From assembly GCA_964492835.1 (NCBI GenBank), contig CAZBLC010000002.1:7375-71374 (forward strand): 64,000 bases of DNA, read 5' to 3'. How positions within the stretch are numbered: position 1 is the stretch's first letter; each line of letters opens with the position of its first letter. The notes under the pieces were generated by a model. The model was not told the DNA's origin, did not search any database, and worked only from the letters and a program-made list of their open reading frames with translations. Made by a program: the position numbers and the translations under genes. This DNA is from an uncultured Candidatus Saccharibacteria bacterium (GTDB lineage Bacteria; Patescibacteriota; Minisyncoccia; Phycocordibacterales; PALSA-1337). Below are positions 39,559 to 64,000 of the stretch, one piece after another.

Positions 39559-40011
39559 TTACTTTGAGAAGACCACGAACTCATAGGGGGAAATGAAAAT
39601 CTTTCCCCCGATCTTACTAATCGGCAATTCCACCCAATCATACCGCTTTGGATGGTGAGGGTGGGGATCCATGTTCAAAGTTGGCACATGGAGAATCTCA
39701 CTCCGTGCCAAAGTGACACGTGACACCGACCGACGGATCTTGCCTCTGTGCTTGAGACACAGAAGCCGACTTACCGGTGCATCCTTGCGACGACATTCCT
39801 TACGAAACATCTCCTTCGCAAAATTATCCACCTCGCCACTGCCGGCGAATTTGGAATACCCAAGCCCTCGAGCACACGCCCGAATTTGAGCGAGGGTATA
39901 ATACCCTCCTTGAGTATTCCACGGGCACACAGCAATCTGCTCTGTGCCAAACCAAACACTACCAATCGGAAGAACTTCAATCTTCATCTTATGTGATTTC
40001 CAATTTTTCAA
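39559..40011 (-). CDS. hypothetical protein, GC-rich island gene 4
   Basis: 150-aa ORF (internal alternative start MKIEVLP…). About 50% GC against the one-third-GC host. Cys/His-containing. No motif recognised. Confidence 0.35.
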   Translation of the reverse strand: MKNWKSHKMKIEVLPIGSVWFGTEQIAVCPWNTQGGYYTLAQIRACARGLGYSKFAGSGEVDNFAKEMFRKECRRKDAPVSRLLCLKHRGKIRRSVSRVTLARSEILHVPTLNMDPHPHHPKRYDWVELPISKIGGKIFISPYEFVVFSK

Positions 40012-40099
40012 CCGACTCTATGAATCCACAATAATCTTTCAATTATGGACTCAAAAAAGTGAAGGATTTTTGCATCAGAATCCTCCAAAAACTCGAACA

Positions 40100-40954
40100 T
40101 CACCTAGGTTTGACAATCACTCCAGCAAACCCACGAACCGGATCGCCATAAGGTTCACCGACCCGATTTGGGAAAGTGGCCGCCCATGACATAAAATCCT
40201 GCACGATCTTAGGGGCCGTGTGTCCACCGAGAACAATCTTCCTATTGCCTGTCGGCTTTTGTGTCCGATCCTTGTCACAAATATCAGCCACGTAGGACTC
40301 ACCGGACCTAAGAGCTGCCTCTGGCAACTCTTCCACAAATCCAATGGTCCGCAGATCGCGGACTCCGTTATCAAACTTGGGAGCGGACTTGAGTATGGTC
40401 ACCGCCTTCCCAATGATTGCTTCCAGGATCCCAGGATCAGCCTTGTGGGCCAGACTCGGAATCCCTGCGTAGAACGCCACCTTCTCCGAAAGACGATGGA
40501 GACGAATGGCATCCGGGGTCACCATCTGGCACCGGCCAGCGTAAGCGGCGGCTGGACAATGGTCGCTTGCTGCGACCAAGAGTTGATACTCCGTCGGCTT
40601 GAGGCCGAGAAACATCAACAACTGTCCGAGGGATGAACCTTCGAAATACAGTTCAGGCGGAAACCCGAATCCGTAATCCCCAGGATTATGGTGGTCGCAA
40701 CGCGCGACCACCTCGAGCGAACCGGCGCATGCCGGATTGCATTCGAAGATAATGGCTCCGGTCAACTCTTCAGCTAACCCACCATCAACCACAAATCCGT
40801 CAGCCTTGTAGGCAGTGCTGGCCGAAACCAGCTGACCTTGAAATGTCGCCGTGGCGACAATATAGCCGACCGATTCAGCCGCCTTCCGGGCTTCTGCTTC
40901 CTCAACATCAGTCATACCGAAGATGACTACCGTATTTTTAGGTATAGCTTTCAT
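40100..40954 (-). CDS. divergent DHH/DHHA1-like phosphoesterase (island gene 3)
   Basis: 284 aa. FVVDGG (motif II-like Asp), VVARCDHHNPGDYG (DHH motif III) and KIVLGGHTAPK (GGGH-like DHHA1 motif) appear in the canonical order. High GC. Confidence 0.45.
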   Translation of the reverse strand: MKAIPKNTVVIFGMTDVEEAEARKAAESVGYIVATATFQGQLVSASTAYKADGFVVDGGLAEELTGAIIFECNPACAGSLEVVARCDHHNPGDYGFGFPPELYFEGSSLGQLLMFLGLKPTEYQLLVAASDHCPAAAYAGRCQMVTPDAIRLHRLSEKVAFYAGIPSLAHKADPGILEAIIGKAVTILKSAPKFDNGVRDLRTIGFVEELPEAALRSGESYVADICDKDRTQKPTGNRKIVLGGHTAPKIVQDFMSWAATFPNRVGEPYGDPVRGFAGVIVKPR

Positions 40955-41090
40955 CTTTTTTACTTGTCGAGATTTTCCTTTAGATCCACCACATCATGTG
41001 ACAGATCTATTAAGAAACCCGAATTCACGAATCGGGTTCTGGTTTACAACTTAGTAAACCTCGGCGTGTTTAGGTAACACGCGACCATCT

Positions 41091-41579
41091 TTACTTCAGC
41101 CATGAGAGCGTCGTAGCCTCACGGTCAAGTCTTCCGAGAGTTGGGTGGGTGAGGTCGCCTATGCCAAGCTTTGAAAAATAGTTGGCAAATTTTGATACCG
41201 TCCACTCTTCATAATGACTGAACTCCCAGTCATTACAGCAACCGCCACTCATGTCGTCGTAGATCGCGACGGTGCCCTTCTCCTCACCATACTGGGCGAG
41301 GAAAATTTTGTTTTGAGCCTCCAACTTGTCGAGGAATCTCTTCCTCGCAAGAAGCTCGAGATCTGAACCAAGTAGATTCAGACGTTCGTCGTCATCCCAG
41401 ACCAGATCAATGATCTGGCCCACCTCGAGGTGGTAAAGGGTGGTCGAAACAACCCCATGATCTCCACCACCACGAAAGATGTGGACTGCCACGTGTTGGT
41501 AGGCCTCACCCGGAGCGAAGCTCCAGGAGAGAACGCGTCCTTTGACGCGTTGGCCTTTTTTGCTAAAAAACCAAGACAT
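41091..41579 (-). CDS. hypothetical protein, GC-rich island gene 2
   Basis: 162-aa ORF. High GC. No motif recognised. Confidence 0.35.
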   Translation of the reverse strand: MSWFFSKKGQRVKGRVLSWSFAPGEAYQHVAVHIFRGGGDHGVVSTTLYHLEVGQIIDLVWDDDERLNLLGSDLELLARKRFLDKLEAQNKIFLAQYGEEKGTVAIYDDMSGGCCNDWEFSHYEEWTVSKFANYFSKLGIGDLTHPTLGRLDREATTLSWLK

Positions 41580-41887
41580 AATAAATTTTCCTTCTCAGAA
41601 TCACACTTGCACCAACAATAGGTACAATATGCAATCCCTCTTACCCCACCAATGTTTAAGTTTTTTACGCTATCTATATAGTGAGGCGAAGAGGAATAAC
41701 ATTGCAGTTGTCTGTTTACACAGACCATTGTTCTGCGTTCTCCATATTCGCTATTTAGTTATCAAATAACTTTCTGCTTTTCGATCCTTTTGGACCTTCA
41801 TCAGTCGGAATGCACATTCCGAGAAGCAACCCATTCGCTCAATGGGTAGAGTTAAGTTTTCTAGGTTCACCTACAACCTTGCCACGA

Positions 41888-42268
41888 CTAGTAGCTGTGG
41901 AGCTCCCGAAAGCCAGCGAATGAGAAGACGAGCTCCTTCTTCACCGTGCCATCAGACTGGGGAATGTCTTTCGACACTCGAGGGGTCACCGACTCCACCA
42001 GCTTAGCACCGGTCTTACGGCCGATGGCGTTGATGGCAGCGGCCAGCTGTTGCTGGCCCATGCAGTGGAGGGTGTCCCCCTCCTTGATGCCACCGACTGC
42101 GGTGACCACTGCCTCGGCCCGCTGGACGAACCAGTCACGGCTGAGGTTCGCGTCGTCCGGCACCACCAAGAGTTTCTTGTCCTGGAGCTGGACCACCTCG
42201 CCAACCGCCTGAGCGGCAGCGATCTGGTCGGCGGTAGGAGCGTGTTGCATGACAAAGATGAATTTCAT
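41888..42268 (-). CDS. hypothetical Rossmann-like small protein (island gene 1)
   Basis: The track ORF extends to 42451. The likely start is MKFIFVMQHAPTADQ… at 42268, just after the GC transition. The alpha/beta pattern (…KKLLVVPDD…GDTLHCMGQQQLAAAINAIG…) suggests a Rossmann-like or SLOG-like fold. No firm family. Confidence 0.35.
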   Translation of the reverse strand: MKFIFVMQHAPTADQIAAAQAVGEVVQLQDKKLLVVPDDANLSRDWFVQRAEAVVTAVGGIKEGDTLHCMGQQQLAAAINAIGRKTGAKLVESVTPRVSKDIPQSDGTVKKELVFSFAGFRELHSY

Positions 42269-43929: not shown

Positions 43930-44002
43930 GGTGCGGGACGGGGGAATCGAACCCCCATCTACACATTGGAAGTGTGTCATTTTACCACTAAACTAGTCCC
44001 GC
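43929..44002 (-). tRNA. tRNA-Trp (anticodon CCA), 3' CCA encoded
   Basis: Reverse complement GCGGGAC-TA-GTTT-AGTGGTA-AAAT-G-ACACA-CTTCCAA-TGTGT-AGATG-GGGGG-TTCGATT-CCCCC-GTCCCGC-A-CCA folds as a cloverleaf. The anticodon loop CTTCCAA gives CCA. Confidence 0.85.
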
Positions 44003-44045
44003 TTATATTAAAATTTAAGAACTTTATCTATACTAGCAAGAATTT

Positions 44046-44495
44046 TTAATTTTTGCCACTATTCTCGCCTGTTTGTGGATGATTATGCTTTATCTCCTCC
44101 TTTATCTCATCCATCTCCTTCTTGATATCCAATATTGCTTCTTCTAGAACTACTATCTCCTTTTCTTCTTCTTCTATATCCTTCTTTGTCTTGTCAGCAC
44201 TCTTCTTCTGTTGCTTAAGTCCTGATATTAGGATTGTATCTCCAATGAAGTACGAAACAAACAATCCTGTAGCTAGAAGTATTACTACGGTAATGATCAT
44301 ACTTACTGGTTCATAGAAAAGAAAACCTAGTATTCCCCCTTTAGCTTGTAGTATGTCTGCTGTATGCCATATACCCCTCCAAAACAATACTATGGCCACA
44401 CTACCTATTAGAGTATATACAACCGGGAAACGACTTAAATTCCCTCTTACACCATCTTCAAATTTATCAAAAAAATCTACAACCTTTTTAATCAT
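44046..44495 (-). CDS. hypothetical membrane protein with C-terminal acidic coiled coil
   Basis: 149 aa, two TM segments, E/K-rich tail. Confidence 0.4.
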   Translation of the reverse strand: MIKKVVDFFDKFEDGVRGNLSRFPVVYTLIGSVAIVLFWRGIWHTADILQAKGGILGFLFYEPVSMIITVVILLATGLFVSYFIGDTILISGLKQQKKSADKTKKDIEEEEKEIVVLEEAILDIKKEMDEIKEEIKHNHPQTGENSGKN

Positions 44496-44507
44496 AAATG
44501 TATTATA

Positions 44508-45872
44508 TCATCCCTTTGGATCAAAAATAGAGGGATTAGGGTTTTCTCCAGACAAAATTCTAGAAATTCTGCGTCCTCCATATACAGACGGTATGATTCC
44601 TATACCATTGCAACCCAAGTTGTATAGCAATACCCTATTTTTTGGTTCCGCTCCTATTAATCTAATTCTATTAGGTGTGTAACCCATAAGACCGTGCCAT
44701 GTAAACTCATAGTCAATCTTACGGTTAGGATCAGAATCATATTCTTTCTTAATAAATTGATCTATTTTTGTAGGAATTTCATCTGGATAATCATAATTCC
44801 TCATATACTCAGCTTTATCATCCAGAGCTATCTCTGGTCCTCCCATACATACCAAGTTATGCTTCTTATCGCCATACTCATGAGGTCTTCTGGTTAGATA
44901 CAAGTACTCTGCCTTTGGGTCAGTTGGGTCATAATCATCAGTCCAATATGCTATAGCAGTTGGTGGTTTGTTTATATTCTCTAGATATCCAGACATATAA
45001 CCAACAGTTCCACCAACTAAGTGGTGAAAGTTCTTGTCTATAGCCAATCCACCGTCATTAAATATATCGAAATTCTCAAATCCATTTGTGCACAAAATTA
45101 TCTTACTAGCGTTTATCGTATGCTTTTCCACATCAAGTAGTCCGTGTTTCTCCTTCAGAACTATCTTGTTGACCCTAGTTTCTTCATACAAAGTGAATCT
45201 ATCCTTATACTTTTCCAACAAGAACAGAGCTATCTCCTGACAGAACAAAGCTGAATTCATACATGCCGCATCGTCTGAGTATAGGGCGTGAAAACTTTCA
45301 TCTTTTGTCTCCATCCTCTTTAATATTTCAGACTGTGGAACTAGTCTATACAGATTCTTGTAAATCCTAGGTATTGAATCCACAAAAGGTGCTGTTTCAC
45401 TAACTAAAAAAGTATTTTGATGTATTCCTGATCTAACTTCCATCTCTAAATCTCCAAGAGCCCTCAAGACTTGGTAAAGGTTTGAATATCCTATGTTTCC
45501 CTTAGTCTTAGAGAAGACTATATCAAGCTTTGCATCCTCATACATTTCGTCTATGAGTAACCAAGTTGAATTTAGAGCTTGTATAGCATCTTTTGTCATA
45601 TCAAATCCAAACTCTTTCTCTATATCAACCAATGGTCTTTCGAAACGTGCCACTACTTGTCCGGCATTATGACCTGTTGCACCATGAGCCAATCTTCCCT
45701 GGTCTAATATGACTACCCTTTGCTTAGTATATTTGAGAGTAAAGAAAGCTGTAGATATTCCAGCTATCCCCGCACCGATAATAGCGACATCAGTATCTAA
45801 ATCCTTATTAAGAGAGATAGATTTCCTCTCATGATCTAGTTGATGTATCCACGGTGACTTATTAATTCTCAT
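44508..45872 (-). CDS. FAD-dependent oxidoreductase (DAO family)
   Basis: 454 aa. N-terminal dinucleotide-binding motif DVAIIGAGIAGISTA. …LDQGRLAHGATGHNAGQVV…. Confidence 0.7.
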   Translation of the reverse strand: MRINKSPWIHQLDHERKSISLNKDLDTDVAIIGAGIAGISTAFFTLKYTKQRVVILDQGRLAHGATGHNAGQVVARFERPLVDIEKEFGFDMTKDAIQALNSTWLLIDEMYEDAKLDIVFSKTKGNIGYSNLYQVLRALGDLEMEVRSGIHQNTFLVSETAPFVDSIPRIYKNLYRLVPQSEILKRMETKDESFHALYSDDAACMNSALFCQEIALFLLEKYKDRFTLYEETRVNKIVLKEKHGLLDVEKHTINASKIILCTNGFENFDIFNDGGLAIDKNFHHLVGGTVGYMSGYLENINKPPTAIAYWTDDYDPTDPKAEYLYLTRRPHEYGDKKHNLVCMGGPEIALDDKAEYMRNYDYPDEIPTKIDQFIKKEYDSDPNRKIDYEFTWHGLMGYTPNRIRLIGAEPKNRVLLYNLGCNGIGIIPSVYGGRRISRILSGENPNPSIFDPKG

Positions 45873-45918
45873 AAAAAAACAAATTTTATGAGTAGATTAT
45901 ACCACAAACACTTTATTG

Positions 45919-45991
45919 TCGGAGCGCCGGGATTCGAACCCGGAGTCGCCTCTTCCCAAAAGAGGAATGTTAGCCGTTACACCACGCTCCG
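45919..45991 (-). tRNA. tRNA-Pro (anticodon TGG)
   Basis: Reverse complement CGGAGCG-TG-GTGT-AACGGCTA-ACAT-T-CCTCT-TTTGGGA-AGAGG-CGAC-TCCGG-GTTCGAATC-CCGGC-GCTCCG-A folds as a cloverleaf with the anticodon loop TTTGGGA. No CCA encoded. Confidence 0.8.
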
Positions 45992-46263
45992 ATATAGAGA
46001 TTATACTAGCATATGGATTATATAAAAGCCAAAATAATATAGTTATTGATACGCAAGCACCACTATTAGAGACGTGACCCTTATGTTCTTAAGCATCACA
46101 GGACATGTCCACAATAACAATTCCTATATTTCTACATGGTTATAAACAGACAGTGTTTATAACCTAAAAAGACAAAGGACACGAATATAGGCCATATTTT
46201 GTCTGTCTTATACCCACTATCCCCAATGTTATCCACAGTTTTACATAAAGTACCTACAAAATG

Positions 46264-46334
46264 TGCGGGTAGCGAGACTCGAACTCGCATTTTAACATTG
46301 GCAATGTCATGTTCTGCCCTTAAACTATACCCGC
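46264..46334 (-). tRNA. tRNA-Gly (anticodon GCC)
   Basis: Reverse complement GCGGGTA-TA-GTTT-AAGGGCAGAACA-TGACA-TTGCCAA-TGTTA-AAAT-GCGAG-TTCGAGT-CTCGC-TACCCGC-A. The anticodon loop TTGCCAA gives GCC. Confidence 0.8.
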
Positions 46335-47021
46335 AATGTAATTTTCCTGACTTAATTCGATAGCAAGCATCTCAATCCACTTCATAATCTTGCATTTTAA
46401 GTATGCACTAGAAACTCCAACACTGCAAACTCCGTATGATAATCTTCGAGTCTTGTGTTTGCCCAGTATAACCATACTCTTATTGAAATCCTCCGGTTTT
46501 AAGCCAGCATTATTAATCCAGTATTCTTTACACTTATCCTCATCTAAATCAGGATACAAAAGCAACCAAGCCTTCATCTTAGGACCTTCAAAACCACAAA
46601 TATTCTTTAAGAAACTCAAGAATAGCTTGATCATCAAAGGCTCAGTATTAGCAACACAACAATTGCTTTTAGAACTTTTATTACCCTCTCCCCAATAGAT
46701 CATTAAGCCAGATATAAACAGAGGGTGATACTTCAACAGATCAAACTCTTCAATCGCTTCCTTTCTAGCCTGCTCGTATAGTTGTTTAAGGTTATCACCT
46801 CTTATCTTATTAAGTCTCTGTATACGAACAATATGTGACTTCTTTGCCCTTTCTGAGAGTTTTTTAGATAGATCATTTGACCAATTCTGGTTTCTAAACC
46901 AGTCAGAAAGCGTGCTTTTAGGAACTCCTAATTCCGAAGCTATCTGATTATAGCTCTTTCCATCTCTTCTAAGTGATATAGCTTGTTCCTTATCTTTACG
47001 CATATGTGTAAAGTATATCAC
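46320..47021 (-). CDS. HTH + LAGLIDADG-like putative homing-endonuclease-family protein (copy B)
   Basis: 233 aa. N-terminal HTH (…ISLRRDGKSYNQIASELGVPKSTLSDWF…). Central …LFISGLMIYWGEGNKS… resembles a single LAGLIDADG helix with conserved acidic Glu before Gly. Paralog of 47158-47835. The last five codons and the stop lie inside the tRNA-Gly 5' region. Confidence 0.45.
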   Translation of the reverse strand: MIYFTHMRKDKEQAISLRRDGKSYNQIASELGVPKSTLSDWFRNQNWSNDLSKKLSERAKKSHIVRIQRLNKIRGDNLKQLYEQARKEAIEEFDLLKYHPLFISGLMIYWGEGNKSSKSNCCVANTEPLMIKLFLSFLKNICGFEGPKMKAWLLLYPDLDEDKCKEYWINNAGLKPEDFNKSMVILGKHKTRRLSYGVCSVGVSSAYLKCKIMKWIEMLAIELSQENYIAGIV

Positions 47022-47079
47022 ACGAGTTCGGTAAGCAAAAGTTAGAAATCTTATGTCTAATTTTTAAAGTATATCTTTG

Positions 47080-47151
47080 TGCACCCGGAGGGACTCGAAC
47101 CCCCAATAAATGCTTCGAAGGCACTTGTGATATCCATTTCACTACGGGTGC
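47080..47151 (-). tRNA. tRNA-Arg (anticodon TCG)
   Basis: Reverse complement GCACCCG-TA-GTGA-AATGGATA-TCAC-A-AGTGC-CTTCGAA-GCATT-TATTG-GGGGG-TTCGAGT-CCCTC-CGGGTGC-A. The anticodon loop CTTCGAA gives TCG. Confidence 0.75.
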
Positions 47152-53104: not shown

Positions 53105-53134
53105 TTGTAATTGTGTCGTGCTATAATATTAGAA

Positions 53135-54193
53135 ATGAACGAGGATCAAAAAAAATCTCCAATAGTAACTTCATTTGTGGGTGGGGCTATACCCAAAACA
53201 GAGGATCATCCTCTACATATACTAGATAATCAAGTAGATCCTGAAAAGAAAAATATTGGGCAGAAACCAATCCGCACATATGAAAGTGATGTAGCTGAGG
53301 CTCTTGCAAGAAAGAAGACTTCGGTAATGACAATGGCTGTGGCCGAAGGACAGAGAAGAACAGGTGAGAGTGTCATATCAAACAAACCAACCTCTAATGT
53401 GGGGAGGAAGATACTTCTTGCAATCATTAGTCTAATATTTATAGCATCCGGCGTAATTGGAGGATATTACCTTTACCTAAAGAGCCCATTATCTAAACCT
53501 CAAGTAGTAGCTACGGTGAAGAATGTTCCAAGTATCATACCTCCAGATACACAAAAGATTATTAAGATAGGTTCAGCCAAAAAAGATCAGATATTTAATG
53601 GTCTAACTAACCAATTTAAAACCCTACCAATCAACGAAGGTAAAGTCTCTGAATTTATACTTGCCTACAATGTGGGATCAAGTACCAGTAGGGTAACAGG
53701 ATCAAATTTCATTAATGAAATGGGTTTCAGTATGTCAGACATGCTAAAAAGAGCGATTACAGATAGCTGGATGACTGGTGTGTACTCAAGTAATGGAGAG
53801 AATTTCCCATTCATAATACTAACAACTGATTTCTTCCAAAATAGCTATTCTGGAATGCTTCGTTGGGAACCTAATATGGCAGAGGAGTTGGCTGATATAT
53901 TTGATATTAGAAACAAAGCTATACCACAACAAACAATAGAGGCTGAGGTATCAAGCACAACAGCTAGTACAACTGAGGTCATAAAAACTCCATCATATAC
54001 ATTGTTTAATCTAAGAGGAAGTTTTGAGGACAAGGTAATATCTAATAGGGATGTGAGGGAGTTTACGGCTACAAACGGTAACATGCTATTCCTCTACACA
54101 TTCATAGACAAAGAGAGAATACTCATTACAACATCAGAATCCGTAATACCAGCTATACTTGAGCGTATTGAAAAACAAGCATATGTAAGATAG
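53135..54193 (+). CDS. hypothetical single-pass membrane protein
   Basis: The track ORF starts at 53111. The probable start is MNEDQKK. One TM (ILLAIISLIFIASGVIGGYYLYL) and a large extracytoplasmic domain. Confidence 0.45.
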   Translation: MNEDQKKSPIVTSFVGGAIPKTEDHPLHILDNQVDPEKKNIGQKPIRTYESDVAEALARKKTSVMTMAVAEGQRRTGESVISNKPTSNVGRKILLAIISLIFIASGVIGGYYLYLKSPLSKPQVVATVKNVPSIIPPDTQKIIKIGSAKKDQIFNGLTNQFKTLPINEGKVSEFILAYNVGSSTSRVTGSNFINEMGFSMSDMLKRAITDSWMTGVYSSNGENFPFIILTTDFFQNSYSGMLRWEPNMAEELADIFDIRNKAIPQQTIEAEVSSTTASTTEVIKTPSYTLFNLRGSFEDKVISNRDVREFTATNGNMLFLYTFIDKERILITTSESVIPAILERIEKQAYVR

Positions 54194-54598: not shown

Positions 54599-55696
54599 TT
54601 AGAATGGATTCTTCGCCCCTCTTATCTCAAAGTGTACGTGTGGACCAGTTGTCTTACCAGTCATACCTACCTTTGCAATCATTTCTCCTTGCTCTACAGT
54701 ATCTCCAACCTTAACAAAGTTCTTCTGTGTATGGGCATATAGAGTCTGACTACCATTATCATGAGAGATAACAACATAGTTTCCGTAACCTCCATTCCAT
54801 CCACCATTTGAAATACTAGAGATAACAACTCCATCAGCAGATGCACGGATTATACTTCCAACCGGAGCCGCGAAATCTATACCGTTATATCCGTGTAGAC
54901 CTTGTGACTTGATAGCGCCACTTACTGGTCTTACATAATATCCTGGATAGAAAGGGCCATCTGTATCATGAGCTTTGTTTGTTGTACCTCTAGACTGAGC
55001 GATCTTAGAAACAGCTACAGCAGTAGGTTCTGCATCTGGAATAATAATCACACTACCAACAGATAGGGTAGAAGATATGGTTAGATCGTTATAATCAAGA
55101 ACTTCCTCTAGGTTACTCTTGTATCTAAGTACAATACCCTTGATTGTATCTCCTTTTTTAACTGTATACTTAACACCTGATATAGGCAGGATAACTAGGT
55201 TCTGTCCCTCCTTTATAGAAGGATTCTTACCAAGCTCGTTCGCCCAGATGATAGTATTAACTGAAACGTCGAACATTTGAGCTATTTGGGACAGGGTATC
55301 ACCACTTCTTACAGTATATAGACTAATCTCTCCTGAAACCCTACTTTCTACATCAGATACAGTACCCTGAGGACCTATTTCAGCTGAAATAGCATTGTTA
55401 TATGCCAAAATATTACCCTCGTCATTCTTAAATGGTGTAGGATCTGAATTAACCGCCGCCTCTAGAAGGAGCATATTCTGAGAATTTACATCACTTGTAG
55501 TCTCATTAGACTTAGCTGAAGCCTTGTCACTACCCATATCACCGAAGATAGAAAACAAGCCTGCATTAGCAGACTTTGGGTAAAAACCGTATGAAAATAT
55601 GAATACTGAAACGATAGACAGTGCAATAGCCTTTTTTGCAAAAGGTATTGTTTTGGCCATTGATTTAATTGTTACTGAATTAGATAAATATTGCAT
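54599..55696 (-). CDS. LysM-domain M23 family peptidase (cell-wall endopeptidase)
   Basis: 365 aa. Signal/TM. Two LysM repeats (YTVRSGDTLSQIAQMF…, YTVKKGDTIKGIVLRY…). M23 core …GIDFAAPVGS.I.A.ADGVV…HTQK…VGMTG.TTGPHVHFEIR. Confidence 0.85.
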   Translation of the reverse strand: MQYLSNSVTIKSMAKTIPFAKKAIALSIVSVFIFSYGFYPKSANAGLFSIFGDMGSDKASAKSNETTSDVNSQNMLLLEAAVNSDPTPFKNDEGNILAYNNAISAEIGPQGTVSDVESRVSGEISLYTVRSGDTLSQIAQMFDVSVNTIIWANELGKNPSIKEGQNLVILPISGVKYTVKKGDTIKGIVLRYKSNLEEVLDYNDLTISSTLSVGSVIIIPDAEPTAVAVSKIAQSRGTTNKAHDTDGPFYPGYYVRPVSGAIKSQGLHGYNGIDFAAPVGSIIRASADGVVISSISNGGWNGGYGNYVVISHDNGSQTLYAHTQKNFVKVGDTVEQGEMIAKVGMTGKTTGPHVHFEIRGAKNPF

Positions 55697-55880: not shown

Positions 55881-57839
55881 ATGTCATCAAATGTTGCAAA
55901 TTTAGATTTAAATCAAAGACAGAGAGAAGCTGTCGAAACTACCGAGGGACCAGTATTAATAATTGCAGGTGCAGGTGCTGGAAAGACAAAAACAATCACA
56001 CATAGAATACTTAATTTAATTAAAAATGGTGTTAAGCCATCAGAAATACTTGCCATTACCTTTACCAACAAGGCAGCTAAGGAAATGCGGGAGAGAGTAT
56101 TTCATTTAATAGAGCAGGACAAGACATTAAACATCCCAATATCATTCAATGAGAGACCCTTCGTAAGTACATTCCATGCACTTGGGGTACACATAATCAA
56201 AGAGAATGCATCTCTGTTGGGTATAACAAGACACTTCACAATATATGACAGGGGTGATTCAAAGAGAGCAGTTAAGGATGCTTTAGAGGAAATGGGGATG
56301 GATATTAAGCAATATGAGCCTGGGATAATACTAAATACCATATCTAGAGAGAAGGGAGATGGGGTAACAGTAGCAAAGTATAGATCAAATCATACTAGCG
56401 ACTACTTTAAAAAGGTAGTTGGGCAAGCTTGGGAGAAATATGAGGAGACCCTACTTAAAGAGAAGTCTTTAGACTTTGATGATCTGCTATTAAAAACCGC
56501 CAGCCTACTTAAGACATATCCTGAAGTTAAAAAGCATTACAGCAAGGTATGGAAATACATACACATAGACGAGTATCAGGATACAAACAGAGTACAATAT
56601 GAGATTGCATCATTACTAGCTGAAGAAAATCGTAATATATGCGTCGTGGGTGATATCGATCAAAACATATATAGCTGGAGAGGGGCAGACATTGCTAATA
56701 TGATGAACTTTGAGAAGGAATATCCTGAAACAAAGATAATTACCCTAGAGGAAAACTATAGATCAACACAAACAATACTTGCGGTTGCTAATAACGTAAT
56801 TAAGAAGAATGTACTTAGACCCGAAAAGAACTTGTTCACAAAGAACATAGAGGGGGAGAAGGTAGAATTACTAATATCATATACAGAACAAGAAGAGGCT
56901 CGTATGATAGCTGATGAAGCCAACAAACTCATTAAAAATGGTAATAACCCTAGAGAATTAGCCGTACTGTACCGTGCCAACTTCCAGTCTAGAGTACTAG
57001 AAGAAGCATTTCTAAAGAAAAATATTCCATATCAAGTGTTGGGAGTAAAATTCTTTGAGAGAAAGGAAGTGAAGGATGTATTGTCATTTATAAAGGCAAG
57101 TATGAATAGGGATAGTACGAATGATCTAGTAAGAGTAGTTAACGTTCCACCTAGAGGTATTGGTAAGGCAACGATAATGAAGGTAATAACTGGACAAGTA
57201 GATACACTGGGACCGAGCCTGAGAAATAAGGTGGATCAATTCACTAGCCTACTGGAGAGAATTAAAGCTGTAGCACTTAAAGAAAGTCCTTCTACCCTTA
57301 TAAAATTTATCATAACTGAATCTGGGATAGAAAGTGTATACAAGAACGGTAGTATGGAGGAGCAAGAGAAATTAGAGAACTTAAGAGAGCTAGTATCAGT
57401 TGCTAGTCAGTATGACTCTTTACCACCAGGGGAGGCTATAGAGAAGCTTCTTGAAAATGCTGCACTCGCAACAGATCAAGATGAGATGGAAAAGGATAAT
57501 AATGCAGTTAAACTAATGACTGTGCATGCATCTAAGGGTCTAGAATTTGATTATGTATTCATTGCTGGTATGGAGGAAGACCTATTCCCACACCAAAGGA
57601 TGAATGAAGAGAAAATAAGCCAATCACAAGCAGAGGAGGAGAGAAGACTCTTCTATGTAGCCCTAACTAGAGCAAGGAAGAAGATATACCTAAGCTATAC
57701 ACAACTAAGAACAATATTCGGTGCACAGAAAGTTAATACTCCATCAAGCTTCATAAGTGATATAGGGGATGAGCATATTACCTCCGTAGGGGATACTGAG
57801 GCTCCAAGAGGAATTAAGGCAATATTCATAGATTTCTGA
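55881..57839 (+). CDS. pcrA: ATP-dependent DNA helicase PcrA/UvrD family
   Basis: 652 aa. LNQRQREAV… Walker A AGAGAGKTKTITHR. …VDEYQDTN…, …TVHASKGLEFD…, …YVALTRAR…. Confidence 0.85.
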   Translation: MSSNVANLDLNQRQREAVETTEGPVLIIAGAGAGKTKTITHRILNLIKNGVKPSEILAITFTNKAAKEMRERVFHLIEQDKTLNIPISFNERPFVSTFHALGVHIIKENASLLGITRHFTIYDRGDSKRAVKDALEEMGMDIKQYEPGIILNTISREKGDGVTVAKYRSNHTSDYFKKVVGQAWEKYEETLLKEKSLDFDDLLLKTASLLKTYPEVKKHYSKVWKYIHIDEYQDTNRVQYEIASLLAEENRNICVVGDIDQNIYSWRGADIANMMNFEKEYPETKIITLEENYRSTQTILAVANNVIKKNVLRPEKNLFTKNIEGEKVELLISYTEQEEARMIADEANKLIKNGNNPRELAVLYRANFQSRVLEEAFLKKNIPYQVLGVKFFERKEVKDVLSFIKASMNRDSTNDLVRVVNVPPRGIGKATIMKVITGQVDTLGPSLRNKVDQFTSLLERIKAVALKESPSTLIKFIITESGIESVYKNGSMEEQEKLENLRELVSVASQYDSLPPGEAIEKLLENAALATDQDEMEKDNNAVKLMTVHASKGLEFDYVFIAGMEEDLFPHQRMNEEKISQSQAEEERRLFYVALTRARKKIYLSYTQLRTIFGAQKVNTPSSFISDIGDEHITSVGDTEAPRGIKAIFIDF

Positions 57840-57856: not shown

Positions 57857-58645
57857 ATGACTTTTGTAGCTAAAAAATCACTAGGACAAAATTTTCTACA
57901 TGCACCAAATGTAGTTTCTGCCATGGTACACGCTGGAGGGGTTACAAAAGATAGCTTTGTACTAGAAGTAGGGCCAGGTAAAGGGGTATTAACACAAAAG
58001 CTAGTTGAAACTGGAGCAAGAGTCACTGTAGTAGAGAAAGATGATAGGGCAATACCGTTTTTGAATGAAAAGTTTGTAAATGAGGTAAAAAGTGGTCAAT
58101 TAGAGATCATACATGCTGATATTCTAGAGTTTAACGAACAAAATCTACCAAAAAGCTATATATTACTAGCTAATTTACCATATTACATAACTGGAGAGTT
58201 CCTTAGAAAGTTCCTGGAAACACCAAATCCAGCTCAAAAAATGGTCATTATGCTACAGAAGGAGGTGGCCAAGAGAATTGTTGATGAAAAAGAAAGTATC
58301 CTATCAATATCTGTAAAAGCCTATGGAAATGCTAAATATATTACTACTGTACCAAGAAAATTCTTTAGACCAATACCAAATGTAGATTCAGCGGTAATAT
58401 CTATTGAAAATATATCAAAAAACTTCTTTGTTGAATCAGAAATTGATGAGAAATACTTTTTTGAAGTACTAAAAGCTGGTTTTGCACACAAAAGGAAGGT
58501 AGTTATAAGAAATCTGGAGGATAAAATTGATAAAAATACGCTAAATACACTATGGGAAAGGGAAGCTTGGTCAAAGGATCTAAGAGCAGAGAACATAACA
58601 CTAGAAATGTGGAAAAAAATCGTAGGAAATAGTTGTATCTCTTGA
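57857..58645 (+). CDS. rsmA: 16S rRNA (adenine1518/1519-N6)-dimethyltransferase
   Basis: 262 aa. KKSLGQNFL… …VLEVGPGKGVLT… …ANLPYYIT…. Confidence 0.85.
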   Translation: MTFVAKKSLGQNFLHAPNVVSAMVHAGGVTKDSFVLEVGPGKGVLTQKLVETGARVTVVEKDDRAIPFLNEKFVNEVKSGQLEIIHADILEFNEQNLPKSYILLANLPYYITGEFLRKFLETPNPAQKMVIMLQKEVAKRIVDEKESILSISVKAYGNAKYITTVPRKFFRPIPNVDSAVISIENISKNFFVESEIDEKYFFEVLKAGFAHKRKVVIRNLEDKIDKNTLNTLWEREAWSKDLRAENITLEMWKKIVGNSCIS

Positions 58646-58651
58646 TATAAT

Positions 58652-59557
58652 TTGGTGAGTATCGATGATACTACCCATTTGAAAAATAATTGGAAAAATG
58701 TTTTGTTCATTTGTATCGCAATCCTCCTTGTAGTAGGAGCTTTTGTGTATGCGGAAAACAAGAATAACAAAGAGAAAATTGCATATGTTGCAGAAGATGT
58801 AATATCAGCAGATGGGTCAGTTGTTAGTCCACAAGAAGTTGATACTGATGAGGATGGTAGTAAGGATTGGGAAGAAATACTTTTTGGTACAAGCCCAAAT
58901 GATCCAAAAAGTAAGCCTAGTGCCACAAAAGCACCAGTCACTTCTGATGTAACTAAAGATGCACCCGAGAAACTAGAGCCTATAGATATCGTTAGCAGAG
59001 ATTTCTTTGCTAGATATCTAGAACTAAGACAGTTGGGCGCATCGCAAGACAAGGCTAGTCAGGAGGAATTAGCTAAAACTGTTGCTGGCAATATCGTACT
59101 TTCACAACCAGCTAAATATGTAATCAGTGAAATACAAGTTAAGCCTGATAGCGGAAATGCTGCAGTTATAAAATACGGGGAAGAGGTGAGTGCGATCTTT
59201 AAAAAGTATGCAATCAATTCTAGAAATGAGGCAGTGATTGCAAAAGAATCACTAGAAAAAGAAGATACTGATATACTTAAAGAAATTGATCCTAGCATAA
59301 AAAGTTACAAGAATATAATAAATGCTTTGATAAAGGTTAGTGTTCCTCAATCAATGTCTTTAATGCATCTAGATTTAGTTAACGCAATGAACGGAAGTCT
59401 GTTTGTTGCTCAATCTTTTAGAGATTCTGGTACTAATCCAGTAGAAGGGGTACAGGCGCTGTCATACTACCAAGTAGTGGAGAAGAATTTGTATGATGCG
59501 GTTACGGCAATACGAAGCTATTTTAAATACTTAGGAATATATGAAAATATTTTTTAA
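58652..59557 (+). CDS. hypothetical membrane-anchored protein
   Basis: 301 aa. One N-terminal TM. An acidic linker, then a helical domain. Overlaps the next gene by 17 nt. Confidence 0.45.
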   Translation: MVSIDDTTHLKNNWKNVLFICIAILLVVGAFVYAENKNNKEKIAYVAEDVISADGSVVSPQEVDTDEDGSKDWEEILFGTSPNDPKSKPSATKAPVTSDVTKDAPEKLEPIDIVSRDFFARYLELRQLGASQDKASQEELAKTVAGNIVLSQPAKYVISEIQVKPDSGNAAVIKYGEEVSAIFKKYAINSRNEAVIAKESLEKEDTDILKEIDPSIKSYKNIINALIKVSVPQSMSLMHLDLVNAMNGSLFVAQSFRDSGTNPVEGVQALSYYQVVEKNLYDAVTAIRSYFKYLGIYENIF

Positions 59558-61229
59558 TAAAAATATAATACTAGGATTCATAATACTTACGTTAGTTTTT
59601 TCTGTATTACCTAAAAAAACCAATGCTCTGCTAGGTGTAGGGGATGTTGTTACTGACCCTGGAAACATGGTGCAGACGACGATAACTGCTGCAAACACCA
59701 CTGCATCAGCCTTTTCCCAATACAGTATCCAATTTAAGGAATTCGTACTAGACGGACTGGGTACAATGTTTGTTAAGCAGATAATAAGACAAATTACCAA
59801 CAGTGTTGTTAATTGGATCAACTCTGGATTCGAAGGTAGTCCATCATTCTTACAAAATCCTGGAGGATTCTTTCTTGATGTAGCGGATCAACTTACCGGA
59901 GAGTTCTTGGCTGGGGCAGTGATATGCGACGAAGAAAAGATGCCAGATGGTAGTGTGGTTAAGACTAATTGTAGAGGGGGTGGGCCACTTACAGCACTTT
60001 GTTCACCATTCAGTTTGGATATCAAGATTGCATTGGCTTTTAAATACAGACCTAGAGCACAAACAAGATACAGCTGTACTCTAAGTAAAATAATCGAAAA
60101 CTCTAAAAATGCAGTAGAAAATTCTTCAATTAATGGATTTACAGCAGGTGATTTCAGGCAGGGAGGTTGGCCAGCATTCGTATCACTTACAACAGAACCA
60201 CAAAACAATATTTATGGAGCTTACTTGAGCGCCGAGAGTGATCTATCTTGGAGAGTTGCAAGCGCTCAAGCACAACAAAGAGATGAATTAGGTGCTGGAA
60301 AAGGTTTTCTTTCAATGCGTGACCCTAAGTGTATGAAGCAAGTTGCTGCTGACAAACAGAGAGTCGCTGATCAAAAACTAAAAGTTAAGAACGATCCTTT
60401 TTTGGGTGTTGATGTGGCAACAGTTGAAGGAGGGAATGGTGGACCGGATCAGTTAGTTCCAATTAAAACAAAGTTGGATTGTGACATAGTAACACCTGGC
60501 TCTGTAATAGTTAGTTCATTAGAAAGTAATATTAATGGTCCGCTGCATGAGTTGCAAATCGCTGATGAAATTAATGAGGTAGTTAACGCTCTTTTTGCTC
60601 AGCTTGTTACACAAGTACTACAGAAGGGTCTTAGTAGTGTGAGTAGTGTAAATTCTAGTGGTAGCTCATACCTAGACCAGACAGTAGCTGATCTAAATGC
60701 CGAATCTAATCCACAGATGATAAAGATAAGAGATGAGTTGGTAAAGAACGTAGATGCATACAAGGAAAATACTGAGGAGTACAGAAACAACAGAGAAACA
60801 GCACTTAATGTGATGATTGATATAAGAAGATCATACGACTCTGCTCTAGCTTGCTTTGAACAAAAGCTACAGGATAGTAGTACTAGATATGCATCTGACA
60901 AGCAAACAATAGAAAGAAACATTGCTGAAATTAATGCAACCATAATCAATCAGGTTTCATCTAAAGCAGCAAACCTACTATTACTACTTCAGGAAGCTGA
61001 GGACAGATTGAAGACACTGCAAGATATACAGAATAGAGCAAATACTGCAAGAACATTAAATGATCTAAATATTCCGAGTCAGAGATATTCAGAGCTTCTA
61101 CAGAGTAGGGGACTTACAACAGCGCAAGACGTACAGAAGTCTAAGGCGGACTTAGATACAACAAACACGGAAGCAGCACCATTAAAACAGGATGCAGTTA
61201 GAAAACTACAAACATGCCAAATACTATAA
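59541..61229 (+). CDS. large secreted hypothetical protein, first gene of T4SS-like locus
   Basis: 562 aa. Signal peptide. Cys-containing N-terminal half and a long C-terminal coiled-coil-like region. Directly upstream of a VirB6-like membrane protein. Confidence 0.45.
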   Translation: MKIFFNKNIILGFIILTLVFSVLPKKTNALLGVGDVVTDPGNMVQTTITAANTTASAFSQYSIQFKEFVLDGLGTMFVKQIIRQITNSVVNWINSGFEGSPSFLQNPGGFFLDVADQLTGEFLAGAVICDEEKMPDGSVVKTNCRGGGPLTALCSPFSLDIKIALAFKYRPRAQTRYSCTLSKIIENSKNAVENSSINGFTAGDFRQGGWPAFVSLTTEPQNNIYGAYLSAESDLSWRVASAQAQQRDELGAGKGFLSMRDPKCMKQVAADKQRVADQKLKVKNDPFLGVDVATVEGGNGGPDQLVPIKTKLDCDIVTPGSVIVSSLESNINGPLHELQIADEINEVVNALFAQLVTQVLQKGLSSVSSVNSSGSSYLDQTVADLNAESNPQMIKIRDELVKNVDAYKENTEEYRNNRETALNVMIDIRRSYDSALACFEQKLQDSSTRYASDKQTIERNIAEINATIINQVSSKAANLLLLLQEAEDRLKTLQDIQNRANTARTLNDLNIPSQRYSELLQSRGLTTAQDVQKSKADLDTTNTEAAPLKQDAVRKLQTCQIL

Positions 61230-61233
61230 CTAT

Positions 61234-63018
61234 ATGAAAAAGATACTTTCTACAATTTTTATAGTAACAATAATCCTGAGTCTAGTGGTGGTGCCAGACA
61301 TGTCTTATGCAGCAAATTTTCTGGACGCGCCAATACAGAATGTCGTTCATGGAATTATTTCTTGGGTAATGAATTTTATACTCACCATTGCCTCAGGTTT
61401 GGTAATAGCTAGTGGTCTTCTTCTAAGTGTATCGATTAACATAACAACAAATTTAGGAGTCTATTTTGACAGCATGCCTGTCATGAGAGAAATCTGGTTA
61501 ATTGTAAGAAATATATCTAGTATATTTATAATATTTGCACTTATATATGCATCTATTTCTACAATACTAGATATTGGCAAGAATAACGTTAGGGAACTTG
61601 TAATAAATATAATAAAGGTTGGATTACTAATTAACTTTAGCCTATTTTTTGCAAGGGTTGCGATAGACGCATCCAATTTGGTCTCGTTGCAGTTTTACAG
61701 AGCAATTGCACCACAGTCTGGTCAAACAAAAATAAGTAAGCTTTCATCAGCATATTATGATGGTGGTTTGTCGAATGTGTTTATGAATAGTTTGAAAATT
61801 CAAACAGTATACAATAATAGTAATAGTGGATTTTGGAAAGCTACAGACATCGCGTTCAATATGTCCGTCGCAATGTTTTTCGGAGTTATCATGATGGTTA
61901 CAGCATCTATAAGCTTCCTTGGTGCCTCTATTATGTTTATGGCACGTACCGCAATTCTCTTGTTCTGTATGGCAATGTCTCCGCTATACTTTGCTGCTAT
62001 GATTTTCCCGAATGTAAAAGAGTATTCCGACAAAATCATGAAACAGTTCAAGGCGCAATTACTCTTTATGCCAACATATCTTTTCCTTATGTATATAGCC
62101 TTAAGAGTAATTAGTAGTCCTGGATTTAATTCAGTTTTTGGCGCTGATCCTAATTCTAATTCTACTGCAGGGGAAGGTGCATTCGGAATCACACTTGCTG
62201 GTACAATAATTCAGTATGTAATTGCTCTAGTATTCTTAAATATACCTCTAATAGCAGCTATATCCGCAGGTGGAATGGGGGCTAAATTTGCTGGTGATCT
62301 TACGTCTTCAATGAATGGTTGGCTAAAGAAGCAGCCTGGTAATTTGGCGTCTGGTGCTTGGAGGAATACTGGTAGTAGAGTTGCGAGCCGAGTTGCTAAC
62401 AGTACAGCCATGCAGAGATTTGCAGGTACTAGTTTTGTTGGTCAAGGAATTAGAACAGGATTGACTGGTGTAGCTGGAGAATATAACACTAGACTCAATC
62501 AGAGAATAGCAAACAGAGAAGCTACTTATAATTCGCTAACCGATAGTCAGGCTAGGACAGATTACTCTAGAAGATTAACTGGCTCATTACAAACCAGATC
62601 TGGTCTAGTTTCTATGGCAACTACAGGTAGAGCGGATAGAGTGGGTGCGTCCAGAATACTAACCAGAAGACAAACTGAGATAACAGCAGAAATTAATAGG
62701 ATGCTGGCTAGAAGGAGACAATTGGAGGATATCGTTAGAGGTAATCCAGGAAATAATATCCCGCCTAGAACATTAAGTTATGTTGAGCAACAGGAATATA
62801 ATGATATAGGAACAGCTGCCCAACCAGGAGCAGCCTTAACAAGAGAAAATAACAACCTAGATGATATCAGAAGACAGATGATACAATTCCAAGTCAATAC
62901 TGGTGGACAGATGTCAGGTCACGTAAGAGTTCCTGGTAGAGCACCTATAATCATACCTGGGGTAACGCAAGTAACCGGAGGCGCAACACCTAGCCAGGTT
63001 AATAGAAGAAATTACTAA
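61234..63018 (+). CDS. polytopic membrane protein, VirB6/TrbL-like (type IV secretion / conjugation) with long hydrophilic C-terminal extension
   Basis: Track ORF 61192-63018. The probable start is MKKILSTIFIV. Signal peptide plus 6-7 TM helices over 400 aa, then a Gly/Arg/Thr-rich soluble tail. This architecture and the adjacent PrgI-like gene fit VirB6-family proteins. Confidence 0.4.
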   Translation: MKKILSTIFIVTIILSLVVVPDMSYAANFLDAPIQNVVHGIISWVMNFILTIASGLVIASGLLLSVSINITTNLGVYFDSMPVMREIWLIVRNISSIFIIFALIYASISTILDIGKNNVRELVINIIKVGLLINFSLFFARVAIDASNLVSLQFYRAIAPQSGQTKISKLSSAYYDGGLSNVFMNSLKIQTVYNNSNSGFWKATDIAFNMSVAMFFGVIMMVTASISFLGASIMFMARTAILLFCMAMSPLYFAAMIFPNVKEYSDKIMKQFKAQLLFMPTYLFLMYIALRVISSPGFNSVFGADPNSNSTAGEGAFGITLAGTIIQYVIALVFLNIPLIAAISAGGMGAKFAGDLTSSMNGWLKKQPGNLASGAWRNTGSRVASRVANSTAMQRFAGTSFVGQGIRTGLTGVAGEYNTRLNQRIANREATYNSLTDSQARTDYSRRLTGSLQTRSGLVSMATTGRADRVGASRILTRRQTEITAEINRMLARRRQLEDIVRGNPGNNIPPRTLSYVEQQEYNDIGTAAQPGAALTRENNNLDDIRRQMIQFQVNTGGQMSGHVRVPGRAPIIIPGVTQVTGGATPSQVNRRNY

Positions 63019-63027
63019 AATATTTTT

Positions 63028-63666
63028 ATGGATACAATATTAATAGAAAAACAATTAGAAAAAATCCCTGAAATAATTAAAAAGGCTTTCTTTTCTAATT
63101 CAGTTGCAGAAGAAATTGCAAAAATAGGAGAAAATAATGGTCTGCTTTTAGACCAAATCGATGATCTTATAGAGGAAACGGGGTATATGATAATAGGACT
63201 CAAACCATCTGGAGATTTTATAAATATAATCAGTAAAAAACTAAAAATAGAGAGTACTGCGGCACGAAAAATCTCGACTGAAATAAATGATACAGTTCTA
63301 AAAGAGATTCGAAATGAAATAATAAAGCTAAATTCATCAGAGGATATAAAAGATGACTATAAACCTACTTCCACTTCCACCACTCCTCCACCACCCATCA
63401 CTGACCCGGCTCCGATAGAAAAAGCTGGTGAATTTACTATAGAGAAACCTCCTGTAGGCATAACCACAGAACCAGTTGTTGTTAAGAAGGATGAGGTGCT
63501 GAAAGCAATAGAAGATCCTGAGGAATTACTTGAAGCTCCTAGTATAGATCATATGTTAACTACTCCTGTTGTATCAACAGAGAAGGTGGTGGAGGTAAAG
63601 AAGGTTGATGTAGCACCAGTAGAAAAGAAACCGTACACACTAGATCCATATAGAGAACAAATATAA
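63028..63666 (+). CDS. hypothetical protein with Pro/Thr-rich linker
   Basis: 212 aa. No TM. TSTSTTPPPPITDPAP linker. Lies in the T4SS-like locus. Confidence 0.4.
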   Translation: MDTILIEKQLEKIPEIIKKAFFSNSVAEEIAKIGENNGLLLDQIDDLIEETGYMIIGLKPSGDFINIISKKLKIESTAARKISTEINDTVLKEIRNEIIKLNSSEDIKDDYKPTSTSTTPPPPITDPAPIEKAGEFTIEKPPVGITTEPVVVKKDEVLKAIEDPEELLEAPSIDHMLTTPVVSTEKVVEVKKVDVAPVEKKPYTLDPYREQI

Positions 63667-63681
63667 TGATATAATAAATGC

Positions 63682-64000
63682 ATGAGATACCAAGTTCCAC
63701 AGTTCATTGAAGTAGAAGACAAGATCTTTGGATCACTAACTCTAAAGCAATTTATATATCTTGCTGGTGGGGCAGGGCTATCATTCGCTATATATCGTTT
63801 TCTACCATCTATAATATACTCATTCATACCAATAGTAGTCGTAGTAGCTTTTTCAGCTGCACTAGCATTCTACAAGATAAACAACAAGCCATTCATATTC
63901 GTAGTAGAAGCTGCGTATAAGTACTACACATCTGCGAAGCTCTTCATCTGGAAGAAGGTTCCAAGTAAAAAGACTGATAACCCAGTACAAGAAGCAAAGG
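63682..64000 (+). CDS. PrgI-family (VirB3-like) conjugation/T4SS membrane protein, 3' partial at window edge
   Basis: ORF open from ATG 63682 to the window end. MRYQVPQFIEVEDKIFGSLTLKQFIYLAGGAGLSFAIY… matches the PrgI-family N-terminal signature (VPqdI..vEDKI.G.LTlrQ..yl) and is followed by a TM hairpin. Missing from the supplied track because no stop lies in the window. Confidence 0.5.
   Translation, partial: MRYQVPQFIEVEDKIFGSLTLKQFIYLAGGAGLSFAIYRFLPSIIYSFIPIVVVVAFSAALAFYKINNKPFIFVVEAAYKYYTSAKLFIWKKVPSKKTDNPVQEAK

Follow-up and report, generated by a model that had tools for sequence, protein, structure and literature searches.

What kind of machine is encoded by the compact run of genes at positions 58652-64000 of a 64,000-nucleotide stretch of DNA (the window) from an uncultured Candidatus Saccharibacteria bacterium (GenBank assembly GCA_964492835.1, contig CAZBLC010000002.1), and is it, as a sequence-only reading of the same stretch had proposed, the start of a conjugation or type IV secretion-like locus? 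We found the run to be, very likely, the 5′ half of a chromosomal, non-conjugative, origin-proximal type IV secretion system (T4SS) of Patescibacteria, in the Paceibacteria-type arrangement. The secretion half of the proposal, with a VirB6-like protein and a PrgI-type VirB3 analogue at the start of the locus, was supported by a Pfam match to PF12666, by hhalign and fold comparisons, and by synteny; the conjugation half was not. Systems of this kind have already been described in the literature (2023-2025), and the locus adds no new kind. The genes, which we call g1 to g5, are as follows.

58652-59557, plus strand: g1, 301 residues, TTG start, one N-terminal transmembrane (TM) segment.
59541-61229, plus strand: g2, 562 residues, signal-peptide-like N terminus.
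61234-63018, plus strand: g3, polytopic and VirB6-like, with the start given by the family consensus (the longest open reading frame [ORF] runs from 61192 and has 608 residues).
63028-63666, plus strand: g4, 212 residues, without a TM segment.
63682 to past 64000, plus strand: g5, PrgI-family, VirB3-like membrane protein, cut by the window edge.

To place these genes, 83 related loci were examined by ORF calling and phmmer, 80 of them from GTDB species genomes and three fetched separately; the best locus among the GTDB representatives was 55% identical, and the closest relative of all, L084, was found via g2. The five ORFs are real genes, because each has tens to hundreds of homologues and their order is kept in every sufficiently long related locus. 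The ORF listing and translations also bore out their description as co-directional and tightly packed: 6 nucleotides (nt) separate the stop codon of the upstream ksgA gene from the g1 start, and neighboring genes of the block are −17 to +15 nt apart, with 17 nt shared by g1 and g2, 9 nt between g3 and g4, and 15 nt between g4 and g5. The longest ORF of g3 overlaps g2 by 38 nt. The family consensus start (MKKxxxKI) corresponds to the ATG at 61234, 4 nt past the g2 stop, and with this start the overlap vanishes, which indicates that it is probably an artefact of choosing the longest ORF. An NCBI entry 100% identical to g3 (P0001) is called as 572 residues, from a still later start. Promoter-like sites in the block were no commoner than in shuffled sequence, and no convincing terminator was found between the genes, the terminator-like sites falling within genes.

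The visible part of g5, 106 of about 141 residues starting MRYQVPQFIEVEDKIFG, matched the Pfam family PF12666 (PrgI) with an E-value of 1.1e-10 and 42.3 bits, above the cut-off of 27, in agreement with its earlier assignment to that family. It is 91.5% identical to the 141-residue PrgI of L084, which also passes PF12666. On these matches, g5 is a PrgI/VirB3 protein. A VirB4-like ATPase had been expected just beyond the window. In the relatives this expectation held: VirB4 follows PrgI and a TrsD-like gene in 62 related loci, that is, in every one long enough, and three loci end at the TrsD-like gene, with little sequence known beyond it there. For the genome of the window itself, VirB4 is inferred from these relatives.

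The ATPase of L084 (608 residues) contains P-loop_TraG (94 bits), AAA_10 (44 bits), and DUF87 (29 bits) domains, and matched PrgJ of the enterococcal plasmid pCF10 (5.5e-42) and TrwK of R388 (6e-7) by phmmer. The VirB4 family profile aligned to residues 222-772 of PrgJ only (hhalign, 99.6%), which fits an N-terminal domain encoded by a separate gene. Such a gene, encoding a TrsD/TraC-like protein of 210-218 residues, precedes VirB4 in the relatives; it has a precomputed hit to PF26593 (TraC-like), and our own hmmscan and hhalign searches with it returned no match. By these comparisons, the orthologous loci carry a split VirB4, made up of the TrsD/TraC-like N-domain gene and an ATPase of 608-610 residues (L084:14681-17145 and L001:12833-15326).

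The VirB6 component is hard to detect, and its assignment in a Paceibacteria-type cluster depended on several kinds of comparison. By hydropathy, the 608-residue form of g3 has eight hydrophobic segments followed by a tail of about 250 residues (358-608) that contains 33 lysine and arginine residues. An N-out/C-in polytopic topology is predicted, with the tail predicted to be cytoplasmic from hydropathy and the positive-inside rule. A g3 family profile aligned by hhalign to a 10-sequence VirB6 profile built from plasmid proteins with a probability of 83.7% and an E-value of 8.1e-6 over 242 columns. The alignment joins residues 104-367 of g3 to residues 28-277 of TrwI, the VirB6 protein of R388, and covers the entire polytopic core at about 17% identity; against TrwI alone, the E-value was 0.0074 over 105 columns. 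In a Foldseek search of the Protein Data Bank (PDB) with the AlphaFold2 (AF2) model of g3 (mean predicted local distance difference test score [pLDDT], 72.8), ranks 1 to 3 were stalk chains of the R388 system, namely, 8rtd_L (probability 0.95, E 0.05), 7o3v_J (0.69), and 8rtd_H. TrwI is present in both entries, and TrwJ, with 226 residues, is too short to account for the matched chains of 260-268 residues. PrgH of pCF10 (266 residues) aligned weakly to g3 (E 0.13). The Pfam family TrbL (PF04610), to which the sequence-only reading had looked for a match, was the commonest Pfam family among the g3 relatives, found in 2 of 44 at E ≤ 1e-4 (best, 9.7e-5). The gene stands close to prgI, the order g3-g4-prgI in the window continuing to virB4 in the relatives. 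Because these lines (profile-profile comparison, fold, and TrbL matches in relatives), each of them weak, are concordant, we read g3 as a remote, extended VirB6 homologue with an added tail, missed by standard hidden Markov models (HMMs), and the earlier description of a VirB6-like multi-TM protein stands.

The polytopic core of g3 is thus what it shares with TrwI, from which it differs by extra N-terminal TM segments. A large appended hydrophilic domain is also known from extended VirB6 proteins (PMC12857230); unlike in those, the 250-residue tail of g3 is hypervariable and paired with a separate, co-varying protein, g4. In public data, the g3 family profile found 15,391 representatives of 50%-identity clusters at E ≤ 1e-3 and 5,191 at E ≤ 1e-30. 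A survey of Patescibacteria T4SSs reports VirB6 in 480 proteins only (Quinonero-Coronel et al. 2025, PMC12102498), and most members of the g3 family are missed by standard HMMs. PDB sequence-profile searches with the g3, g2, and g1 profiles gave coiled-coil or chance matches only. A precomputed assignment of about 10% of the g3 relatives to PF19590 was not reproduced by hmmscan and was not relied on.

The remaining genes of the run, g1, g2, and g4, had been labelled accessory. On the contrary, they are by synteny fixed, obligate members of a 12-gene block consisting of KsgA and 11 further genes. The order KsgA-g1-g2-g3-g4-PrgI-TrsD/TraC-like-VirB4-(a)-b-c-d, all on one strand, was found in 50 of the 83 loci (the small protein "a" being detected in 33 of these 50 and not in 17), and the remaining loci showed only part of this order, as shorter prefixes or as fragments. 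The four genes after VirB4 encode exported or membrane proteins. KsgA lies immediately upstream of g1 in 71 loci, and g1 is always between KsgA and g2. In L084, PrgI (141 residues) is followed by the TraC-like protein (210 residues), the 608-residue ATPase, proteins of 139, 336, 370, and 418 residues, and then yidC; in L001, yidC, rnpA, and dnaA adjoin the end of the block. Weak T4SS_pilin hits, signals of a VirB2-like pilin, were seen downstream in the relatives. Upstream, about 60 related loci share the order 360-residue protein, DksA-like zinc finger, LysM-M23 peptidase, uvrD, and ksgA, the identities of these neighbors having been checked by Pfam. Those nearest to the block in the window are the following.

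54599-55696, minus strand: hydrolase with LysM (70.3 bits) and Peptidase_M23 (104.9 bits) domains.
55881-57839, plus strand: uvrD, upstream of ksgA.
57857-58645, plus strand: KsgA/RsmA rRNA dimethylase (Pfam RrnaAD, 164 bits), a housekeeping gene and the syntenic anchor of the T4SS block.

This arrangement agrees with what is known of the Patescibacteria-clade systems. According to the 2025 survey (PMC12102498), these have a Patescibacteria-specific VirB4 clade related to the MPF_FATA type of mating-pair formation (MPF), with TrsD as its most frequent partner, together with PrgI/VirB3, VirB6 (480 hits), and VirB2-like pilins, and relaxases are nearly absent. The Paceibacteria genes are situated close to dnaA, dnaN, rnpA, and ksgA, and ksgA is enriched near virB4. 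The system described here is alike in being chromosomal, near ksgA, rnpA, and dnaA, in its PrgI and VirB6-like protein, in the separate TrsD-like gene, MPF_FATA-related VirB4, and VirB2-like pilin signals of its relatives, and in the lack of a relaxase or coupling protein nearby. A T4SS without a coupling or relaxase protein is also encoded by SEML1_0006-0019 of Southlakia epibionticum, which are essential (Wang et al. 2023, PMC10633639; PMC12857230).

Could the block nevertheless be the mating-pair-formation module of a pCF10-like Gram-positive conjugative plasmid or integrative and conjugative element that transfers DNA? The VirB4 of the relatives is closest to PrgJ of pCF10, and the succession of VirB6-like protein, PrgI, and VirB4 mirrors prgH-prgI-prgJ. 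However, the VirB4 of the relatives lacks the first ~220 residues of PrgJ, and g4 is placed between the VirB6-like gene and prgI. Moreover, pCF10 has the PcfG relaxase, the PcfC type IV coupling protein (T4CP), the PrgK hydrolase, the VirB8-like PrgL, and the adhesin PrgB, none of which was detected here. Queries with PcfC, TrwB, PcfG, and TrwC (phmmer) found nothing in the 64-kb window; a relaxase, a T4CP, a PrgK-type hydrolase, and a VirB8-like PrgL were likewise found neither in the window nor in L084, and the gene tables of the relatives' flanks contain no annotated relaxase or VirD4. Since no relaxase or coupling protein was found in the window, the locus is not a conjugative element, and neither the label of a conjugation locus nor the coupling protein anticipated with it was confirmed. 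The setting argues in the same direction: the block lies between housekeeping genes (dksA-like, M23, uvrD, and ksgA on one side; yidC, rnpA, and dnaA on the other) across about 60 loci, its flanks are as conserved as the core genes, and no integrase bounds it. According to the survey, relaxases occur in only 103 Patescibacteria genomes and rarely near virB4 (PMC12102498). The conjugative explanation is therefore largely refuted, and we give it a very small chance.

A CHAP or lytic transglycosylase gene had also been anticipated. No such gene is in the block; its conserved neighbor is the LysM-M23 peptidase gene, two genes upstream of g1, in the same place and orientation in 60 of the 61 related loci that reach far enough upstream. 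It is the only wall-degrading candidate. Hits of the VirB1 type with M23/LysM domains are associated with virB4 in Paceibacteria (PMC12102498), and we consider the LysM-M23 protein a candidate peptidoglycan-remodelling partner analogous to VirB1, the functional link being inferred.

Of the three genes without annotation that proved to be fixed parts of the machine, g1 encodes a bitopic protein with an N-terminal TM segment at residues 16-34 (by hydropathy) and, outside, a predominantly helical domain of about 200 residues. It contains an acidic TSP3-like motif, DTDEDGSKDWEE (DTDEDG...DWEE). The calcium-binding Pfam repeat TSP3_bac matched 29 of 74 g1 orthologues (best, 4.8e-10), but not the window protein in our Pfam scan, and a profile search gave no PDB relative. 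We regard g1 as a lineage-specific T4SS component.

The g2 protein has a hydrophobic N terminus (residues 5-23, by hydropathy) and six conserved cysteines. Residues 80-240 make up a highly conserved core, and residues 390-561 form a C-terminal helical bundle that is modelled confidently by AF2 (pLDDT above 90), unlike the poorly modelled N-terminal two thirds. Just past the signal peptide (window 59541-59720) g2 carries the motif VVTDPGNMVQ, which is of the DUF4141 type. DUF4141 (PF13605) matched the g2 N terminus (about residues 15-60) in 16 of 71 orthologues (best, 6.8e-8), and three of seven further relatives scanned singly scored 30.3-31.8 bits against a cut-off of 30; the match covers only positions 2-41 of the 53 in the profile, and g2 of the window gives no hit. 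The same type of N-terminal motif is found in TraI of Bacteroidota, although only ~35 residues match and the 562 residues of g2 include a cysteine-rich core and an extended helical bundle. In Bacteroidota conjugative transposons, the VirB6-like component is TraJ. In Bacteroides, the DUF4141 gene directly adjoins traJ (PMC10434189), an adjacency that resembles that of g2 and g3. These features make g2 a candidate extracellular partner of the VirB6-like g3. For the Patescibacteria-clade systems, the text of the survey mentions neither DUF4141 nor any VirB5 (PMC12102498). An assignment of g2 as VirB5 was considered and, on the present evidence, rejected: hhalign against TrwJ gave an E-value of 0.32, a 7-sequence VirB5 profile gave a probability of 3.6%, and Foldseek returned generic helical bundles only, with the N-terminal model being poor. 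VirB5 N termini do show a similar short pattern (V-x-V-x-D-P...), and the profile comparison with g2 was not significant.

By hydropathy, g4 has no TM segment. It consists of a helical N-domain (residue 1 to about 110), a disordered, low-complexity linker rich in proline, threonine, glutamate, and lysine, and a C terminus that ends in DPYREQI (peptide at 63628-63666). Across 70 orthologues, D206, Y208, and E210 are invariant and R209 is conserved in at least 90%. A search for DPYR within the last 25 residues found 55 ORFs in 55 different loci, the matches listed being at the g4 position, and g4 is the only protein in the window with DPYR near its C terminus. No Pfam family matches g4, which appears to be a soluble, adaptor-like protein and is presumably cytoplasmic.

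Several points weigh against the reading of the locus as a Patescibacteria T4SS. The window g3 protein had no hit to TrbL (PF04610) at E ≤ 1, against what had been anticipated, and no significant hit to any Pfam or NCBIfam family; the hhalign probability of its VirB6 match, 84%, is below 95%, and the Foldseek search reached an E-value of only 0.05. When the g1 to g4 proteins of the window were scanned against Pfam and NCBIfam, noise alone resulted; g1, g2, and g4 had no hhalign match to any Prg protein of pCF10 or Trw protein of R388, and homology of these three to a characterised part of a T4SS is not demonstrated. A VirB4 gene of this genome would lie past the window edge, and the expectation of one comes from its relatives. 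In Patescibacteria, genes for T4CP homologues often lie far away from virB4 (PMC12102498), so that one may be encoded elsewhere although none was found in the 64 kb. Finally, the function of the system has been called "completely unknown" in the field (PMC11665869), and a further review (PMC12857230) likewise describes it as unknown.

As for that function, contact-dependent exchange with a host cell is the most likely role of the machine, and we would sooner expect it to export proteins or take up host material than to conjugate DNA. The analogy of Saccharimonadia makes it probable that epibiotic growth depends on the machine; a Patescibacteria T4SS is essential for such growth in the single species tested. 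In the assembly that we propose, g3 would form the membrane platform or channel, like VirB6 in R388, and PrgI would tether the VirB4 ATPase at the cytoplasmic face. The external part would be built by the membrane-anchored g1 and the secreted, disulfide-rich g2, the LysM-M23 hydrolase would open the wall, and g4 may bridge the variable g3 tail, via a matching N-domain, to a conserved partner, via the DPYRE peptide.

A rival reading is that the T4SS works in reverse, like ComB, and imports host or environmental DNA or nucleotides. Patescibacteria cannot make nucleotides, and in Southlakia the T4SS is essential while ComEC-dependent competence is dispensable; a role in uptake has been put forward (PMC11665869). 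ComB of H. pylori resembles the system in having neither a T4CP nor a relaxase (PMC12857230). ComB is, however, a diderm MPF_T system, and the VirB4 here is of the MPF_FATA type. Family scans recognised no DNA-binding or nuclease component in the block. We consider such an uptake machine improbable.

Comparison with close relatives revealed a sharply bounded variable module within the otherwise conserved operon of the T4SS. By blastn and by sliding 90-nt windows of identity against L084, the following segment has been replaced.

61275-63430 (2.16 kb): replaced segment, from the g3 leader to the g4 linker; it takes in mature g3 and the first two thirds of g4.

The counterpart in L084 is L084:11723-14008. 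Identity in the 90-nt windows was about 90% up to 61274, then fell to 26-50%, and recovered from about 63436, the flanks being ~85-95% identical in DNA. Over longer distances, the two genomes are 86-88% identical for about 12 kb before the segment and 85% identical over the last 570 nt, to the final base of the window. At the protein level, identity to L084 was 95% for UvrD, 92% for KsgA, 94% for g1, 93% for g2, and 91.5% for PrgI, but only 40% for g3 and 52% for g4. In a third close genome, L006, the allele is different again and the break comes earlier, at about 59905, within g2; L084 and L006 are 99% identical in VirB4, 98% in KsgA, and 35% in g3. Three near-identical genomes therefore carry three different alleles. 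The closest matches to the g3 tail of the window (49-62%) and to its g4 N-domain (66-78%) were in the more distant loci L004, L005, and L001, in which g2 is 40-43% identical.

The same pattern was seen across all loci. Identity of the g3 tail and the g4 N-domain barely follows that of UvrD (Spearman, 0.12-0.16), whereas identity of KsgA, VirB4, and the g3 TM core does follow it (0.67-0.81). The two variable domains correlate with each other in identity (0.35; Mantel p, 0.002). When UvrD identity was 85% or more, as in 30 locus pairs, the median fell to 53% in g2 and 49% in the g3 TM core, and similarity of the g3 tail was undetectable, against 94-99% for VirB4. Single-linkage clustering of the tail and g4 N-domain gave one cluster, as the variants intergrade without clean classes. 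No paralogue or silent cassette of g1 to g5 was found within the 64-kb window. Our reading of these data is that recombinational allele replacement acts together with fast divergence of the envelope-facing genes, and the g3 tail and the g4 N-domain, both predicted to be cytoplasmic, appear to be an interacting pair.

A more specific proposal, which we offer as possible but doubtful, is that g3 and the g4 N-domain form an exchangeable specificity cassette, in which the g3 tail and the g4 N-domain would be a co-evolving lock-and-key pair, swapped as a unit between lineages by homologous recombination, with DPYRE leading into a conserved ATPase core. Crossovers would then occur at the conserved 3′ end of g2 or the g3 leader on one side and at the g4 linker or the DPYRE end on the other, and each variant would be connected to that one core by the invariant DPYRE peptide. 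Should the pair serve to choose cargo or to control gating, it would substitute for the missing coupling protein, and the turnover of its alleles would reflect changing substrates or selection imposed by the host. The bounded recombining module offers experimenters concrete candidates for specificity determinants, and within the locus it is this variable g3-g4 module, together with the DPYRE adaptor, that merits follow-up. A limited literature search found no earlier report of g3/g4 allele replacement, and neither the DPYRE protein nor a VirB6 allele replacement was seen in the available part of the survey (PMC12102498).

Another rival reading is of an organelle that serves mainly in adhesion or pilus building, without cargo, whose variable parts would tune host specificity, like the Trw system of Bartonella. 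The VirB2-like pilin signals downstream in the relatives, the pilin arrays reported in the survey (PMC12102498), the lack of a T4CP, and the divergence of g1, g2, and g3, far faster than that of VirB4, all fit such an organelle. Bartonella Trw diversified its VirB5-VirB7 copies in host adaptation, and there, too, diversification is centred around VirB6 of an otherwise conserved T4SS without a coupling protein (PMC2610397). In Bartonella, however, trwJ-trwI-trwH were tandemly duplicated within one genome, whereas here a single copy is present and alleles are exchanged between lineages. A cytoplasmic location is predicted for the most variable parts, namely, the g3 tail and the g4 N-domain, which fits poorly with the matching of surface receptors, and a powerful, extremely conserved VirB4 ATPase has been kept. 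An adhesion organelle without cargo is unlikely on this evidence, and a T4SS for exchange with the host remains the reading that we prefer.

In the neighborhood of the block, uvrD of L006 contains an in-frame insertion of ~1.09 kb (L006:4482-5571) with an intein (Intein_splicing, 43.8 bits; Hint), at a point corresponding to about 56665 of the window; uvrD of the window and of L084 is without it. The 360-residue protein of the upstream order, encoded at 53111-54193, matches no Pfam family and stands beside the DksA-like gene in 43 of 61 loci. Elsewhere in the window, an Rfam scan identified four tRNA genes on the minus strand at 43932-47151, with no rRNA or other RNA family at threshold. The region 40001-42000 has a GC content of 0.49, against 0.33-0.41 in the rest of the window, and no Rfam match. 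A PilB/GspE-type ATPase (T2SSE, 396 bits) with an MshEN domain is encoded on the minus strand at 20242-21987, which suggests a type IV pilus locus in that part of the window.

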